A stretch of 64,000 nt of DNA from NCBI GenBank assembly GCA_965204765.1, contig CBDBFG010000004.1:451402-515401 (forward strand), in the 5' to 3' direction. Within the stretch, counting starts at the first letter, position 1, and every line of letters begins with the position of its first letter. The translations under genes and the position numbers were made by a program. Source of the stretch: Alphaproteobacteria bacterium. GTDB taxonomy: Bacteria > Pseudomonadota > Alphaproteobacteria > Caedimonadales > UBA9215. The notes under the pieces were generated by a model. That model saw nothing but the letters and a program-made list of their open reading frames with translations, did no database searches and had not been told where the DNA came from. Positions 2 through 8,062 of this stretch are shown here, in pieces.

Positions 2-337
2 AAGGAGGTATACCATTTAAAGGGTGGTATTTTAAAATATTTAGAGACTGTTCCAAGTGCACAAACAAAATGGGATGGCGAATGTTTTGTCTTTGACGAT
101 AGAGTAGCGGTGAAAGATAGTCTGCAGCTTGGCTCGTATGATCAATGCTATGGTTGTCGGTATCCGATTACCGAAGAACAAAAACAATCAAAGCATTATG
201 TCAAGGGAGTATCATGTCCACGGTGTTATAACCATACTTCGACAACACAGAAAAAACGTTTTGCCGATCGACAATTACAAGTTGAACTAGCTAATAGTCG
301 TGGTGAAAAGCATATAGGCAAGCAAAATGGCAATTAA
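2..337 (+). CDS. trhO: Rhodanese-domain protein TrhO/YceA (UPF0176, tRNA uridine-34 hydroxylase family), C-terminal part; 5' end lies outside the window
   Basis: The frame of ORF 110..337 stays open to the window edge ([18 protein letters not shown]...[14 protein letters not shown]). It is followed by the CYGC...CPRC cysteine pairs typical of this family's C-terminus. Confidence 0.6.
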
Positions 338-578
338 GTTTGAAGAGCTACAATCTATATTGGAATCTTATTTCCCTGATAGTACAATTTATCTAGAAGA
401 TATGCTAGGTGATGAGGATCACTATGGAGTTACCATAGAAAGTGCTAGTTTTAATGGTATGTCCAAGGTTAAAAGACATCAAGAAGTTTATAAGGCTTTA
501 GGTAATAAGATGGGTAACGAACTGCATGCGTTATCTATTAAAACCATCACACCTGAAGAAAAATTACTAGGAGAATAA
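327..578 (+). CDS. bolA: BolA family protein
   Basis: 83 aa. BolA-like motifs are present ([23 protein letters not shown]...LHALSIKT). It sits directly upstream of a monothiol glutaredoxin, a conserved pairing. Confidence 0.8.
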
Positions 579-580
579 TT

Positions 581-901
581 ATGAGTGCTATTTTTGAGAA
601 AATTAAATCAATTATCAGTGACAATGATACGGTTTTGTTTATGAAGGGTGATGACAAGTTTCCAATGTGCGGTTTTTCTGGTTTTGTAGTGCAAGTATTA
701 CAATCATTAAAAGTAAAATTTACCGCGGTAAATGTTTTAGAGGATCAAGAAATGCGCCAAGGTATTAAGGATTTTACTAATTGGCCAACTATTCCTCAGT
801 TGTATGTGCAAGGTGAATTTATCGGCGGAGCAGACATAATCAAAGAGATGTATAATTCCGGTGAACTAAAGGCTTTGTTTGAAGAAAAAGGATTAATTTA
901 G
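581..901 (+). CDS. grxD: Grx4-type monothiol glutaredoxin
   Basis: CGFS active site (FPMCGFSG) and WPTIPQLYVQGEFIGG motif; 106 aa. Confidence 0.9.
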   Translation: MSAIFEKIKSIISDNDTVLFMKGDDKFPMCGFSGFVVQVLQSLKVKFTAVNVLEDQEMRQGIKDFTNWPTIPQLYVQGEFIGGADIIKEMYNSGELKALFEEKGLI

Positions 902-2115: not shown

Positions 2116-2395
2116 GTTGCTTTTTACGTTATACGTTGTAGTCCGTAAAGTTGACGCAATGATTGTGACGTATGGTGCTGTCATTGCACAATATTCTGTG
2201 TTGATCGTGGGTGGTATGTAAAAACTGCATAATGAATGGCTGTAATGCAAGTTTCTAGCTAATTAAGGGCAAGAAAAGGTAGTTGTCGCACCAGATATTA
2301 CGCAGATTTATTTTCTTATTTCTATGTGGGTTCGTAACTGATACAGTGTTGGTGCCTGTGTACGGTTCGTATATTTTATTAGATAGGATAACCAA

Positions 2396-3553
2396 ATGTT
2401 TACTTTCATTAAAGTTTGTTTGTTTTGTTTCACTTGTATGCAAATTAGCTATTCAACGCCAGAGATCAGAAAAATTAACCCTCCTAAACTTGGTTTATCT
2501 CACCAAGGTCAAAAAATTATAGCTTATAGGCCTATGCGTAAAGGTTCACCTAGGATAGAGATAGAACACTTAGGTAACAAAATTATTGCCCACAACTATG
2601 GTCACGGTGGTAGCGGGTGGACTTTGGGACCGGGATCAGTGCAATACATTATAGCACAGCTTTGTCGTGAGATAGCAGCTAAAGAAATTAGCACAAACGA
2701 ACGTATTACAGTTATTGGGGCTGGAATAATTGGGCAATTATCAGCCTTGGAGTTACTGGCTAAAGGTTATAATAACATCTTAATTGTTGCTCCGGATTTT
2801 ACTGATACTACTTCACATAATGCCGGTGGATTATTGGCCCCTGTTTCCATGGATAATGACCCAAAAATACAAAAGTTAATAGATGAGATGGTGATGATCT
2901 CGTATAAAGTATACGGTGATATTGCGAAAGGACAGCACGCGTATATCAAAAACGGTTGTAGATTTATGCCGTCTTATTTTGAGACAAGGCAAGAGTCTGG
3001 TTTGACTCCATTGGTAGAAGCCGGCCTACTTTCGCCAGCAAAAGATGTAGTGTTAGATTTTCAAAATGGTGTCAGGCGTGCGATGGTATCTTATGATGAT
3101 AATTTATTTATTGATACGGCTAATTTAATGGTTGAAATTGAGAAAATATTGCGTAGTAAGGGAGTGGTGTTTCAGCAAAGGATGGTACATAATATACAAG
3201 ATTTACAAGATAGAATAATCGTCCATGCCAGTGGTTTTGGTGCCAAGAAATTGGTCAATGATCATAATATGGTATCTGTGCAGGGTCATTTGATAATGTT
3301 AGAAGATCAGAATCCTGCAGATTTAGAGTATATGATTTTGGTATATTTTGCCAAAGGTAAAACTATCAAGGGTTATCCTATAAAAAGATCTTTTTATATT
3401 TTCCCCAAGACGGTCATTAATAATACTAACTCTAATAATGTTGGGGTAATTGGTGGTACATTTGTAGAGGTAGAAAAAGAACAAAATGAACCGCATAAAG
3501 AAGAGTTCATCACGATGTTAAACCAAGCACGTGATTTTTATTTTAAACAGTGA
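2396..3553 (+). CDS. FAD-dependent oxidoreductase of the D-amino-acid oxidase (DAO) family with permuted segment order
   Basis: The DAAO C-terminal signature (AYRPMRKG.PRIEIE....IIAHNYGHGGSGWTLGPG, nt 2591 onward) comes first. The Rossmann motif ITVIGAGIIG (nt 2711) and the TTSHNAGGLLAP, HASGFGA, VQGH and GGT motifs follow it. The N-terminal 20 aa are hydrophobic. Confidence 0.75.
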   Translation: MFTFIKVCLFCFTCMQISYSTPEIRKINPPKLGLSHQGQKIIAYRPMRKGSPRIEIEHLGNKIIAHNYGHGGSGWTLGPGSVQYIIAQLCREIAAKEISTNERITVIGAGIIGQLSALELLAKGYNNILIVAPDFTDTTSHNAGGLLAPVSMDNDPKIQKLIDEMVMISYKVYGDIAKGQHAYIKNGCRFMPSYFETRQESGLTPLVEAGLLSPAKDVVLDFQNGVRRAMVSYDDNLFIDTANLMVEIEKILRSKGVVFQQRMVHNIQDLQDRIIVHASGFGAKKLVNDHNMVSVQGHLIMLEDQNPADLEYMILVYFAKGKTIKGYPIKRSFYIFPKTVINNTNSNNVGVIGGTFVEVEKEQNEPHKEEFITMLNQARDFYFKQ

Positions 3554-3554: not shown

Positions 3555-3920
3555 CGTTTAAGTATGTGTTATATAGTGTGCTTCTGCGCATCATCCATAC
3601 ATATTATGATTCATTTGTTAGGCCATTGATGGCTTGCGTTTTATTAATTGTTGTTGATGTTAAGTAAGGTACGTGATGTTTATTCTAAATAACGGCCAGC
3701 GGTTATAAAAAATAATATAATTCATTTATGTATGTGCTTTGATTAATTTATCAAGCTATTTAAGGCCAATGATGTGCTAATATTTGTCAGTGTTAAGTTA
3801 CAATAGTTAGTATAAGTTAGAGATTGAAACTGGACTTAAAATGAAAAAAAGCTAGGATAAGTGAAGCGTATGACTATCTAAGCATGGACAGCAGCACGGT
3901 CGTAATACCGTAGAAATTTA

Positions 3921-4155: not shown

Positions 4156-4695
4156 TTAGCTTGTTCTTCTTTGTTTTCGTTCACGCTCTTTGTGTAGTTT
4201 TCTATCTGAGTAAGTCTTTTTTAGTTGATCAGAGCCAGTTCTTGATAACTGTCTTTTACGTTTTCTTATCAGTTCCTCGACGGCTTGTAAGCGTTCTGGA
4301 TCTATTTTCTGCGGTTTAGGCTCATATGGGTCATCTGGCGATGGTGGAGGTGGGGTAACAAACGATCGTGCAAGGTCAGCGGTATCTTGTCTCATAAATT
4401 GCTGAGGTGATCTTTGTTCCCAAGATTGCAAGGTTTTTTCTATACCTTTATCAGACCCTCTTCGTGCTCCTTTTTTATACATTATTACAGCCCCATGTTT
4501 GTCACCAGCCATTGACATTTTTCTTCCTTTATTAACCAGATCATCACCCGTTGCCACGGTTGAGGAGGAAGTTTCTAAGCGATAATCACCATGACTTGTA
4601 CATACGATTAATATTAATGTACACATAAATAATACTATTCTCATTTTTATTATCCTGTTTAAACAAATACATAATGCGTAAAAAATGTTAAGCAA
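4156..4695 (-). CDS. Hypothetical secreted protein with a proline-rich segment and a strongly basic C-terminus
   Basis: 179-aa ORF. The internal start MRIVLFMCTLILIVCTSHG (nt 4644) looks like a signal peptide. Also contains PPPPSPDDPYEPKP and a tail RKRKRQ...KERERKQRR. No recognisable family. Confidence 0.45.
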   Translation of the reverse strand: MLNIFYALCICLNRIIKMRIVLFMCTLILIVCTSHGDYRLETSSSTVATGDDLVNKGRKMSMAGDKHGAVIMYKKGARRGSDKGIEKTLQSWEQRSPQQFMRQDTADLARSFVTPPPPSPDDPYEPKPQKIDPERLQAVEELIRKRKRQLSRTGSDQLKKTYSDRKLHKERERKQRRTS

Positions 4696-4798: not shown

Positions 4799-6469
4799 TT
4801 ACAGTTTTACCGATTTTTGTTTCCAGTTTGATTCTAACCATGAGGCAGCCATATCGGATGGCATAGGTTTAGCAATTAAATAACCTTGGCCATAGTGACA
4901 TCCAAGTTTTTGTAAGTGTTGAATTTGCTCTTTTGTTTCAATACCTTCTGCAGTAACGCCAAGGTGTAATTCATTAGCCATTGTAATCGCCGATCGAATA
5001 ATAGCCTCGGAAGCAGAGTTATTTAACATTGATTTTATAAATGATTGGTCGATTTTAATTTCATCCAAGGGCAATTTTAATAAATAATCTAATGACGATT
5101 GTCCAGTGCCAAAATCATCAATCACAATACCTAATTTTTGTTGTTTTAAGGATTGTAATATCTCTGCTATTTTATCAATGTTCTGTGCTACTGCGGTTTC
5201 TGTTATTTCTATTTTTACATTGTGTGGAGAGATCTTATATTGTTTGATTTTTAGCAACAATTGGTCAATTAACCTATGATCTTCTAGATTTTTCATCGAA
5301 AAATTAATTGATAAAATTAAGTTTTTATATTGCTTTTGCCATTGCACCAGTTGCTTGAAAGATTCATTGATCAACCATTCAGTGTATGGATTGATTAATA
5401 AAGTTTTTTCTGCGATAGAGATAAACTCTTTTGGTTCTATCGCACCAAGAGTAGGATGATTCCATCGTGCTAATGCTTCGTACGATACAGCTTTGTTTGT
5501 GGTTAATGAAATTATAGGTTGGTAGTGCAATGATAAGTGATGATCTTTTATTGCTTTATTAAGCTCATGCAAAATGAACATGTTTCTTTCGGGTTGATAA
5601 TAGTCTTTTTGTGGATCAAATTTGGTAATTTGTTGGTTGTTGTTAATTCCTTCTTCTGCAGCAATTGTAGAATTTTTGATCATTTCTTTTAGGTTAGATT
5701 TAGTTAAATTATGGCAATCTGTAGTGCCACAGTAAGTCTCGATATAGAGCGGAATAGAATCGATGATGAATGATCTGTCCAGATGTTGTTGCAAGTTTAA
5801 TGCAAGATTATTCACACTATTATCTTTGTGTGCTGTAATGAGAAATGCATCATTGGATATTTTGGCTAGTAATGAGTTTGGTGCTATCAGGGATTGTATT
5901 CTGGTTGCCAGTTTTTTAGTTACATAATCGGTCAATTCTGGACCAAAGGCTTTTTCTACATTTTTAATATTTTTCAACTTTAATAAGCATATACCGAATA
6001 TACCATCACCTATGTTATTGTTAGCACACAGTTTTTCTAATCCTTTGTAATTTGGTAAGTTTGTTACTGTATCGATCAGGTATTTTTGTTCAATAAATTT
6101 TAAATAGGTTCTGGTTAATTGCGATGCTAAACCGGCGAATAGGCCAACAATCACGAAGAATAAAGTGCGAAAAATCCATGCTTCGGTTGGTTGATAAATT
6201 TGTTCTGGTACTGATTCAGGCATAAATGGTCCCAGTACGATCCCAACCACTATGCCGCATAGCGTGCCGATAGCAACGCCGTAACTAAAGCCAGCAAAAA
6301 TTACTGGTATGTACAAAAAATGCAAATATGATAGTTTTGTTCCACCTGTCTTATAGACTAGATAGCCACCACTGATAATTAATATATTAACGATGAAAAA
6401 AATTAAAATTTTGGCCTTTGTTTTACCGCTGTATAGGTTATTAGCTATGATAGTAAGCCATTTATTCAT
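4799..6469 (-). CDS. Membrane-anchored EAL-domain protein (putative c-di-GMP phosphodiesterase) with a degenerate GGDEF-like middle domain
   Basis: About 4 N-terminal TM helices. The GGDEF-like region has SNDAF in place of GGDEF. EAL-domain motifs are present: YEALARWNHP, EITE, DDFGTGQSSL, KIDQSF, EGIET, QGY. Confidence 0.85.
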   Translation of the reverse strand: MNKWLTIIANNLYSGKTKAKILIFFIVNILIISGGYLVYKTGGTKLSYLHFLYIPVIFAGFSYGVAIGTLCGIVVGIVLGPFMPESVPEQIYQPTEAWIFRTLFFVIVGLFAGLASQLTRTYLKFIEQKYLIDTVTNLPNYKGLEKLCANNNIGDGIFGICLLKLKNIKNVEKAFGPELTDYVTKKLATRIQSLIAPNSLLAKISNDAFLITAHKDNSVNNLALNLQQHLDRSFIIDSIPLYIETYCGTTDCHNLTKSNLKEMIKNSTIAAEEGINNNQQITKFDPQKDYYQPERNMFILHELNKAIKDHHLSLHYQPIISLTTNKAVSYEALARWNHPTLGAIEPKEFISIAEKTLLINPYTEWLINESFKQLVQWQKQYKNLILSINFSMKNLEDHRLIDQLLLKIKQYKISPHNVKIEITETAVAQNIDKIAEILQSLKQQKLGIVIDDFGTGQSSLDYLLKLPLDEIKIDQSFIKSMLNNSASEAIIRSAITMANELHLGVTAEGIETKEQIQHLQKLGCHYGQGYLIAKPMPSDMAASWLESNWKQKSVKL

Positions 6470-6559: not shown

Positions 6560-8062
6560 TTATGAAGATTTTATTTTTTTCTGATAAAGTAGGTTAAGTT
6601 TTTTTACAGCGTTAATCCAGACGAATATTATTACTATTACCATTATAGCAAGATAAGGTGATAAAACCATAATGTCATTTGTTGCGGTTATAACTAACAA
6701 GGTGCCGGCTATATATCCACCACTTGCTTTGGCTAAACTATAGCCTGTGACATCAATTGCGGCTTTTCCCTTTTGGCGTAATTCTTTTTCTAATGGAATA
6801 TATGCCATTTCTTTTGTTGGGTCAAAAATACAATATTTGAATGTTTTACCCAGGATTTGCTGTATCGCACCCAAGCTTACAGCAATTGTAAGAGCACCTC
6901 CTGGTAGCATAGAATGCAAACAATTCATGTTACTATTACAGAACATGAATACAAAAAATGGAATAGCTGTACATGCAATTACTATCGGAGTAATCATAGA
7001 AGTTCTATACCATCCTATTTTTGTGATTAGTCCCTTGAATAGGAAGGTGATTATTATAGTCGACCATCCTAAGTAAGAAATAATTTTGGCAGTAAACATG
7101 GTGTACTCTATTTGTGTGGGGTACAGCATTAATACCTGTTTTTTCCACATAATACCGGTTAAGTTCATCACAGCCCCGTAGCTGACTACAAGGATCGCGA
7201 TGTAAATCAAATATTTTGATTTAGCAATTTCTTTGAAACTTTCAATAATAGAACGTTGTTGTTTTTTTTCTTTCACTACGGGCAATTCTTTCGGAGTATA
7301 ATGCTTAGGATCAGTTAACACCGATTTATGCATCCAATAGTGAATAGTAAAGATCATTAATGAAGAAATACCGATCAAAATTATTGTGCGATTAAGTACT
7401 ATGTTCCACGGATCATTTTCATTGCACCCGTTTGCAAATGCACACATGACCTGCAAGACATGTCCGGCGACTATTAGCGCTAAATGACTGATTAAATTAA
7501 ACATAGCGTAAAATCTGGCTGCTTCCTTGGTATTAGTAATTTCATTGGCGAATTGCCAGAACATTAGCCCTAGGATGGTTGCGCCCCAAAGCTCAGCAAA
7601 GAGATAAAATAAAGAACTGCTCCAATTTGCCGCTACGGCGAACAAATGCTGAAAATTGGGGTAGTTTGCTTGTAGAAGTCGCAATTTTTCAGCCGACATA
7701 TGTAAAGCATCTTTATTAGGGTATATAAATGCAGAGTATACTATGTAGAATCCTATAAAACTGCTTAGGATAATATAAAAAACTTTTTGTTGTGAGAGAG
7801 TGTTGGATAGCTTAGCGTAAAAAGTCACTATCACTACCGAAAATGGTAGGATTACAAAGGTTTTTAAAAATGGTATTATTTCTGGACCAGAGGTGGTAAT
7901 GACCAAAGAATCCTTCATGTTCCTTAGTATCGTATAGTTAAATAAAATAAAGAACATCATTAGATTGAGGGGAAGGAATTTTTTTATCTCATGACCATGA
8001 ATTGGCCATAGGAAACTTCTAATTTTGCCAAAATCATTATTCTGAGATTTGCATGCTTTCAT
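6560..8062 (-). CDS. tlc: ATP/ADP translocase (nucleotide transporter, Tlc/NTT family)
   Basis: 500 aa with about 12 TM segments. The N-terminal signature KIRSFLWPIHGHEIKKFLPLNLMMFFILFNYTILRNMKDSLV is characteristic of Rickettsia/Chlamydia Tlc proteins. Confidence 0.9.
   Translation of the reverse strand: MKACKSQNNDFGKIRSFLWPIHGHEIKKFLPLNLMMFFILFNYTILRNMKDSLVITTSGPEIIPFLKTFVILPFSVVIVTFYAKLSNTLSQQKVFYIILSSFIGFYIVYSAFIYPNKDALHMSAEKLRLLQANYPNFQHLFAVAANWSSSLFYLFAELWGATILGLMFWQFANEITNTKEAARFYAMFNLISHLALIVAGHVLQVMCAFANGCNENDPWNIVLNRTIILIGISSLMIFTIHYWMHKSVLTDPKHYTPKELPVVKEKKQQRSIIESFKEIAKSKYLIYIAILVVSYGAVMNLTGIMWKKQVLMLYPTQIEYTMFTAKIISYLGWSTIIITFLFKGLITKIGWYRTSMITPIVIACTAIPFFVFMFCNSNMNCLHSMLPGGALTIAVSLGAIQQILGKTFKYCIFDPTKEMAYIPLEKELRQKGKAAIDVTGYSLAKASGGYIAGTLLVITATNDIMVLSPYLAIMVIVIIFVWINAVKKLNLLYQKKIKSS

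Follow-up and report, generated by a model that had tools for sequence, protein, structure and literature searches.

Does the fold of D-amino-acid oxidase (DAAO) occur in nature with its chain rotated, so that the last part of the polypeptide comes first? This question is raised by a gene at positions 2396 to 3553 of the 64,000-nucleotide stretch analyzed here (the window), which comes from contig CBDBFG010000004.1 of an alphaproteobacterium assigned to the Caedimonadales. In canonical DAAO, the Rossmann unit is N-terminal and the block containing the HNYGHGG motif is C-terminal; in the 385-residue product of this gene, the order is reversed. The original prediction, made from the sequence letters, held that the C-terminal block leads, that the canonical N terminus follows it, that the chain stops about 30 residues after the GGT motif, and that every segment is present exactly once. 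The translation of the open reading frame (ORF) is identical to the one quoted there, and the same 385-residue protein has been recorded from a contig of 792,892 bp.

Profile searches gave clear evidence of the rotated order. The Pfam DAO profile (PF01266) matched the protein with an E value of 2.2e-20 (73.9 bits, against a cut-off of 27.9) in two out-of-order stretches, residues 43 to 84 aligning to profile positions 309 to 349 and residues 103 to 382 to positions 1 to 297 of 353; when taken alone, residues 1 to 97 still matched profile positions 309 to 349 (E = 0.0014). The same picture was obtained with phmmer against PDB, where residues 42 to 83 fell on the C-terminal block of DAAO (7ct4, 325 to 366, E = 1.2e-5; human 2du8, 281 to 323) and residues 100 to 156 on DAAO N termini (1c0i, 5 to 44; 6rkf, 13 to 69). 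When the protein was de-permuted in silico (residues 98 to 385 followed by 21 to 97), the Pfam match became a single collinear one covering positions 1 to 348 of 353, its score rose to 83.4 bits from the 73.9 of the native sequence, and the rearranged chain was collinear with human DAAO in a global pairwise alignment. A profile built from 22 family members also aligned to human DAAO out of order (profile 109 to 162 on residues 2 to 62, 240 to 301 on 135 to 200, and 53 to 106 on 282 to 341). On a doubled human DAAO, profile positions 53 to 162 crossed the junction unbroken (282 to 347, then 1 to 62) as a single stretch of 41.4 bits; on the single-copy sequence, the same two halves gave two separate, out-of-order matches of 13.9 and 17.6 bits. 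The human sequence used here has the correct length of 347 residues, and its HMMER coordinates agree with those of the PDB entries.

The split Pfam match that the original prediction had anticipated was therefore obtained, a normal collinear alignment being seen only with the de-permuted sequence. Its other structural claims also held: the leading block and the trailing N terminus were recovered with Pfam, PDB and family-profile matches alike, GGT occupies residues 353 to 355 of a chain ending at 385, and when all six frames of the window were searched with the family profile, this ORF was the sole match, with no second copy and no relic fragments. With each segment present once, an alignment that runs across the junction of the doubled reference, and collinearity after de-permutation, we are close to certain that this is a true circular permutation and that the protein belongs to the DAAO family.

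The permuted order is retained in the relatives of this protein. A word-indexed search returned 1616 homologues, the 120 best of which were 364 to 444 residues long and 46 to 55% identical to the query over 92 to 99% of its length. When 1.84 billion cluster representatives were searched exhaustively with the family profile, 3294 clusters (at 50% identity) had E values of ≤1e-3, of which 1361 had values of ≤1e-10 and 188 of ≤1e-30. All of the best 150 of the 3294 clusters followed the permuted order collinearly, although a few that contain inserts or fusions aligned in two or three collinear pieces. In a crude motif scan, both patterns were found in 192 full-length members, and YGHGG came ahead of GxGxxG in 188 of these, with 37 others left unscored; one of the four exceptions (P0163) was inspected and turned out to be a pattern miss. 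The longest invariant run of the family in a 22-sequence alignment, NYGHGGSGWTLGPG, lies within the relocated block, which is better conserved than any other part of the protein and whose invariant residues are Y68, G69, G72, S73, G74, W75, T76, L77, P79 and G80, and the invariant motifs specific to the family include LLAPVSMDN, QGHLIML and FPK. The permuted arrangement is ancient and fixed, and it defines a large family.

The AlphaFold model (mean predicted local distance difference test [pLDDT] of 84.4 and predicted TM score of 0.84) places the relocated block in the fold with confidence, as three strands (residues 37 to 48, 53 to 59, and 62 to 68) and a helix (74 to 95) with block means of pLDDT between 79 and 97, mostly above 84. 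The GxGxxG motif (GAGIIG) sits in a beta-alpha-beta unit, with a strand modelled at residues 104 to 107 and a helix at 111 to 122; residues 1 to 16 were modelled with pLDDT below 50. Residues 104 to 385 comprise this Rossmann unit, the TSHNAGG motif, the substrate-binding domain, QGH (the counterpart of RGQ), Y334, GGT and a final helix. The linker of eight residues that joins the old termini is about as long as the canonical C-terminal tail, and the new termini map to approximately L265/E266 of human DAAO, where a surface loop connects a helix to a strand. Rotated segments, a short linker at the old termini and new termini in a surface loop are also features of natural circular permutants in other enzyme families.

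The best Foldseek matches were all DAAO or D-aspartate oxidase (DASPO), with about 300 aligned columns and 15 to 20% identity, and the family profile retrieved from PDB only DAAO and DASPO at E values of 1e-15 to 5e-7, the next family being fructosyl-amine oxidase at 1e-3. With these enzymes (EC 1.4.3.3 and 1.4.3.1; 2du8, 1c0i, 7ct4 and 6rkf), the permuted protein shares the fold, by both Foldseek and sequence profile, together with the GxGxxG Rossmann unit, T(S)xxAGG, GGT, the HNYGHGG loop and the Arg/Tyr/Gly residues of the active site, all segments being present once. It differs from them in having the last ~75 residues first, the eight-residue linker, and termini at about human DAAO 265/266, and, while DAAO and DASPO are cytosolic or peroxisomal, the permuted family has an N-terminal Sec or twin-arginine translocation (Tat) signal instead. 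Other members of the GR2 DAO superfamily (ThiO, DadA, sarcosine oxidase and MnmC) have in common with it the two-domain flavin adenine dinucleotide (FAD) fold and membership of Pfam DAO, but they have the canonical order, lack the HNYGHGG signature, and give far weaker profile E values than DAAO does. Along these lines, no curated equivalog model matched the protein: the NCBIfam model for ThiO (TIGR02352) scored 46.7 bits against a cut-off of 250.8, and those for DadA scored 20.4 against 383 (NF001933) and 19.8 against 494 (NF009074). Neither Pfam nor NCBIfam holds a dedicated model for the permuted family.

In DAAO, the substrate is bound by an Arg and a Tyr on the alpha-carboxylate and by a Gly on the alpha-amino group, and the GxGxxG motif is described as N-terminal (PMC6697736). 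By sequence alignment, all three binding residues have counterparts in the permuted protein. R45 corresponds to R283 of human DAAO and R308 of ReDAAO and is conserved in at least 90% of the alignment; G72 corresponds to human G313 and ReDAAO G335 in a gap-free HMMER alignment and is invariant; and Y334, which is also invariant, corresponds to human Y228 by pairwise alignment.

As for the location of the enzyme, the original prediction had noted a hydrophobic stretch at the new N terminus, which we confirm and can further identify as a predicted secretion signal. Residues 1 to 20, MFTFIKVCLFCFTCMQISYS, are predicted to form a Sec-like, cleavable export signal; they contain no twin-arginine motif of the S/T-R-R-x-F-L-K type before the hydrophobic core. 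Among the relatives, the pre-sequence was hydrophobic in 132 of 169, a twin-arginine motif with a hydrophobic core was found in 24 (for example, P0060, P0088, P0106 and P0119), and 28 had a lipobox (such as YTRRTFLATIATTAGAIALAAC in P0060), including Tat signals with a lipobox of the type SRRxFLxxxAxxxGAxALAAC. Since most members carry Sec-type or Tat signals, the enzyme most likely works outside the cytoplasm, judging from these signal sequences.

The protein is built, in order, of the predicted export signal, the canonical C-terminal segment, the linker, the first Rossmann strand with GxGxxG, and the rest of the fold, and its last element is the helix that comes before the relocated block in DAAO. 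By prediction, it has the three-dimensional fold and the active site of DAAO. The HNYGHGG loop and the Rossmann unit, now contiguous in the chain, would bind FAD, R45 and Y334 would grip the alpha-carboxylate of the substrate, and G72 would touch its amino group. The enzyme could then oxidatively deaminate an amino acid outside the cytoplasm, yielding the imino or keto acid; D-amino acids and glycine are the most plausible substrates, and O2 is presumably the acceptor. Taken as a whole, the protein is very probably an exported FAD amino-acid oxidoreductase of the DAAO/DASPO lineage whose circular permutation is fixed; that it is specifically an oxidase of D-amino acids or glycine is put forward more tentatively, at a little under an even chance.

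Three other explanations have to be weighed against this one. A single sequence of this kind could look the same if it were an artefact or a decayed chimera, with the 3' end of one DAAO gene fused in frame to a 3'-truncated second one and the N-terminal block left as a vestige, and the weak Pfam match of that block when taken alone would suit such an origin. Yet the same architecture and breakpoints recur across unrelated assemblies and cultured isolates, in proteins that number well over a thousand, and the best-matching homologues align over nearly their whole length; the supposed vestige contains the longest invariant run of the family and is modelled inside the fold, and no gene fragments flank the gene in the window. 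A block derived from a separate decayed gene, which the original prediction had named among the outcomes that would refute it, was thus not seen, and the idea is refuted for practical purposes, its probability being negligible. It is also improbable, though by a much smaller measure, that the N-terminal stretch is no export signal at all, the protein being cytoplasmic or tethered to the cytoplasmic face of the membrane and the permutation unrelated to localization. The n-region of the window protein is weak, with a single Lys and several Cys and Phe residues, the pre-sequence is very short or missing in 23 relatives, and the fusions to an Aminotran_5 domain described below are obviously cytoplasmic; most relatives, on the other hand, have canonical signal peptides, some of them unambiguous Tat signals with a lipobox, and a conserved mature start (E-I/V-R-K-I-x-P-P-K-L) is found at one position behind very variable pre-sequences.

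A more serious competitor accepts the permutation and disputes the chemistry. The DAAO scaffold might serve another substrate, such as an opine, an amine, a 2-hydroxy acid, or a peptidoglycan- or host-derived compound, or the electrons might go to an acceptor in the periplasm or membrane in place of O2, which would make the enzyme a dehydrogenase. The low identity to DAAO and DASPO, the changes at the Y224 and RGQ positions, the many family-specific invariant residues, the divergent active-site lid region, the lack of a matching equivalog model, and an extracytoplasmic location unlike that of all characterized DAAOs would be in keeping with it, whereas the conserved triad for the alpha-carboxylate and alpha-amino groups, nearest solved relatives that are exclusively DAAO and DASPO, and gene contexts hinting at amino-acid metabolism speak for the amino-acid oxidoreductase; we consider the alternative unlikely, if well worth keeping in mind. 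Several observations do weigh against the exported amino-acid oxidoreductase that we prefer. Human Y224 is replaced by K330/R331 and RGQ by QGH, and identity to solved DAAOs is just 15 to 20%, because of which the substrate class is not secure. The window protein has no RR pair, and export through Sec would demand the uptake of FAD after export, which is unusual. No gene neighborhood is conserved among the loci of Tisiphia, a JGI metagenome contig (L003), Bacteroidota and Polynucleobacter, for which reason the context allows no firm functional assignment. Finally, no block-core-block duplication intermediate was found among the long family members, and none of these has a second HNYGHGG block.

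The last point bears on how the permutation arose. Tandem duplication followed by loss of both ends is the classic model for natural circular permutants, and the original prediction had proposed this route. It is plausible, but the intermediate that it would leave was not among the long members, all of which are explained by an insertion of 100 to 150 residues after QGHLI, by an N- or C-terminal extension, or by fusion to Aminotran_5. As no long member carries the block at both ends, we infer duplication and truncation rather than observe it.

The suspicion that a permuted DAAO had not been described agrees with our search of the literature for permuted DAAO, amino acid oxidase or glycine oxidase and for periplasmic or Tat-dependent DAAO, which found no natural permuted DAAO in a body of texts that excluded most subscription journals; the listed co-occurrences of "circularly permuted" with DAAO apparently concern work on permuted fluorescent sensors. 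The few source names shown for the homologues are generic ("FAD-dependent oxidoreductase," "D-amino-acid oxidase," "dadA," and "hypothetical protein"). We give about an even chance to the fuller proposal that this is the first recognized natural permutant of the DAAO fold and represents a large, ancient, unnamed family of extracytoplasmic flavoenzymes (Sec or Tat dependent and often lipidated) in freshwater bacteria of many phyla, obligate intracellular symbionts and some protists, with a specificity unlike that of classical DAAO/DDO, for example, the periplasmic or cell-surface deamination of peptidoglycan- or host-derived D-amino acids.

To describe the distribution of the family, we scanned GTDB representatives and obtained 126 loci with a member, all of them 46 to 53% identical to the query. 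The sources were Candidatus Tisiphia, Cyrtobacter, Finniella, Holosporales, Paracaedibacteraceae, Rickettsiaceae, Chlamydiae and Babeliaceae, and there were also cultured Polynucleobacter isolates, Microbacteriaceae, Bacteroidota, Phycisphaerales, Verrucomicrobiota and Bdellovibrionia. The family thus spans endosymbionts of the Rickettsiales/Holosporales type, Chlamydiae, Dependentiae, Polynucleobacter, Bacteroidota, Actinomycetota, Planctomycetota, Verrucomicrobiota and some eukaryotes. Loci L007 to L086 come from at least eight phyla, yet their identity to the query is flat at 46 to 53% whatever the taxonomy, which suggests strong constraint, horizontal transfer, or both. Several labels of metagenome-assembled genomes ("Klebsiella pneumoniae," "Rickettsia typhi," and "Yersinia") are implausible for freshwater bins. 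The Candidatus Tisiphia endosymbiont of Nemotelus uliginosus (NZ_OZ183485.1) has two copies (L078 and L079), located about 350 kb apart on one chromosome.

We were able to distinguish some variants of the architecture. One subfamily has the insertion of 100 to 150 residues after the QGHLI strand (P0181, P0198, P0202, P0218, P0251, P0252 and P0261), and most of its members lack a signal peptide. Another variant is fused at its N terminus to a class V pyridoxal phosphate (PLP)-dependent aminotransferase or cysteine desulfurase-like domain of about 400 residues (P0192 and P0195; L087, 5001 to 7307), and the L087 contig, which we read as chlamydia-like, also encodes a Na/Ala symporter and a Ser/Thr kinase; the fusion could be a functional clue, two amino-acid transformations possibly being coupled in one protein. 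An intronless copy (P0245; L088, 5001 to 6332) is found on a 236-kb contig among eukaryote-type DOT1 and RRM genes. Other eukaryotic-looking members (P0213, P0222, P0260, P0266 and P0269) have low-complexity, transit-peptide-like N termini, and these sequences suggest transfer between bacteria and protists. As regards neighboring genes, in a Polynucleobacter isolate (L086, 3962 to 6389) the gene is followed after 2 bp by that for an M20 peptidase and preceded by one for a TctC-type binding protein, and at L003 (5332 to 7167) the divergent neighbor is a RidA/YjgF imine deaminase. Either arrangement would suit amino-acid catabolism, and neither is conserved. Together with the Na/Ala symporter and the fusions to PLP enzymes, the M20 peptidase and RidA are weak hints of amino-acid metabolism.

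In the window itself, the permuted ORF is an intact, single-copy gene (Table 1). The upstream neighbor, an MFS transporter at 910 to 2115, ends 280 nucleotides ahead of its start, which excludes that the first 100 residues are the end of an adjacent gene. A consensus scan for terminators gave two sites where 1.1 were expected, and a promoter scan of the sequence showed no enrichment over shuffles. Recent horizontal acquisition of the gene was considered and rejected, because the GC content of the ORF (36.5%) equals that of the window (37.3%).

Table 1. Features of the permuted gene and its product (window coordinates; residues are numbered from the initiator Met)
Feature	Position	Strand	Description and evidence
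Shine-Dalgarno-like AGGA	2385..2388	+	7 nt 5' of the ATG; putative, read from the sequence
Complete coding sequence, circularly permuted DAAO-like flavoprotein	2396..3553	+	ATG start, 385 codons plus stop; ORF list, Pfam DAO (E = 2.2e-20)
Residues 1-20, N-terminal stretch	2396..2455	+	Predicted Sec-type signal peptide or membrane anchor; no twin-arginine motif
Residues 21-97, C-terminal block of canonical DAAO (human DAAO ~266-340)	2456..2686	+	Three strands, HNYGHGG flavin/substrate loop, long helix
Arg45	2528..2530	+	Counterpart of the alpha-carboxylate-binding Arg (human DAAO R283, ReDAAO R308); gap-free alignment to 7ct4 and 2du8
HNYGHGG motif, residues 66-72	2591..2611	+	G72 = human DAAO G313 / ReDAAO G335
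Linker, residues 96-103	2681..2704	+	Connects the former C-terminal helix with the former first strand (beta-1); coil in the model
Residues 104-385, canonical N-terminal ~265 residues of the DAAO fold	2705..3550	+	Pfam DAO, Foldseek, pairwise alignment
GAGIIG (GxGxxG dinucleotide-binding motif), residues 108-113	2717..2734	+	G108, G110 and G113 invariant; motif inside the chain, not N-terminal
Tyr334	3395..3397	+	Human DAAO Y228 (alpha-carboxylate-binding); alignment SPYIIPG / SFYIFPK, a sequence alignment and not a structural superposition
Terminator-like hairpin (3619-3636) and T-run	3619..3646	+	Begins 66 nt past the stop codon; candidate from a consensus scan

The rest of the window gives some indication of the lifestyle of the source organism. 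A full-length TLC ATP/ADP translocase is encoded at 6560 to 8062 on the minus strand (Pfam PF03219, E = 1.4e-156), and because of its presence we take the source to be an energy-parasitic obligate intracellular bacterium. A 556-residue protein at 4799 to 6469 (minus strand) has an N-terminal membrane region, a weak GGDEF match (E = 1.3e-9) and an EAL domain that matches strongly (E = 3e-72); cyclic-di-GMP signalling has been retained in a very small genome. At 4156 to 4695 (minus strand) is an ORF of 179 residues with a hydrophobic N terminus, a Pro-rich middle part (PPPPSPDDPYEPKPQ) and a very basic C terminus; it had no match in Pfam and could be an orphan secreted or effector-like protein. 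At 327 to 901 (plus strand), a BolA-like gene and a monothiol-looking glutaredoxin gene (CGFS motif), 2 nucleotides apart, are a classic pair in Fe-S trafficking, and the window also contains an ATP synthase operon. The low GC content, together with the ATP/ADP translocase, the BolA/glutaredoxin pair, the ATP synthase operon and the GGDEF-EAL protein, fits an obligate intracellular bacterium.

Few flavoenzymes have been studied as intensively as DAAO, which serves as a mechanistic model, biocatalyst, biosensor component and drug target. To our knowledge, every characterized DAAO has the same chain topology. No principle is overturned by the permuted family, since circular permutation is a known evolutionary event; it does show that the DAAO fold tolerates new termini at about positions 265/266 and a closed C-to-N junction, which would be useful for fusions, sensors and split enzymes, and it offers a clean case for the study of how permutations arise. 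The family also reveals a blind spot in annotation, with well over a thousand sequences standing under generic oxidoreductase or oxidase labels. For the organism, an apparent exported amino-acid oxidoreductase has been kept even in an endosymbiont-type genome of ~0.8 Mb with an ATP/ADP translocase, an indication that the metabolism of D-amino acids or related compounds includes an extracytoplasmic step that has yet to be studied.

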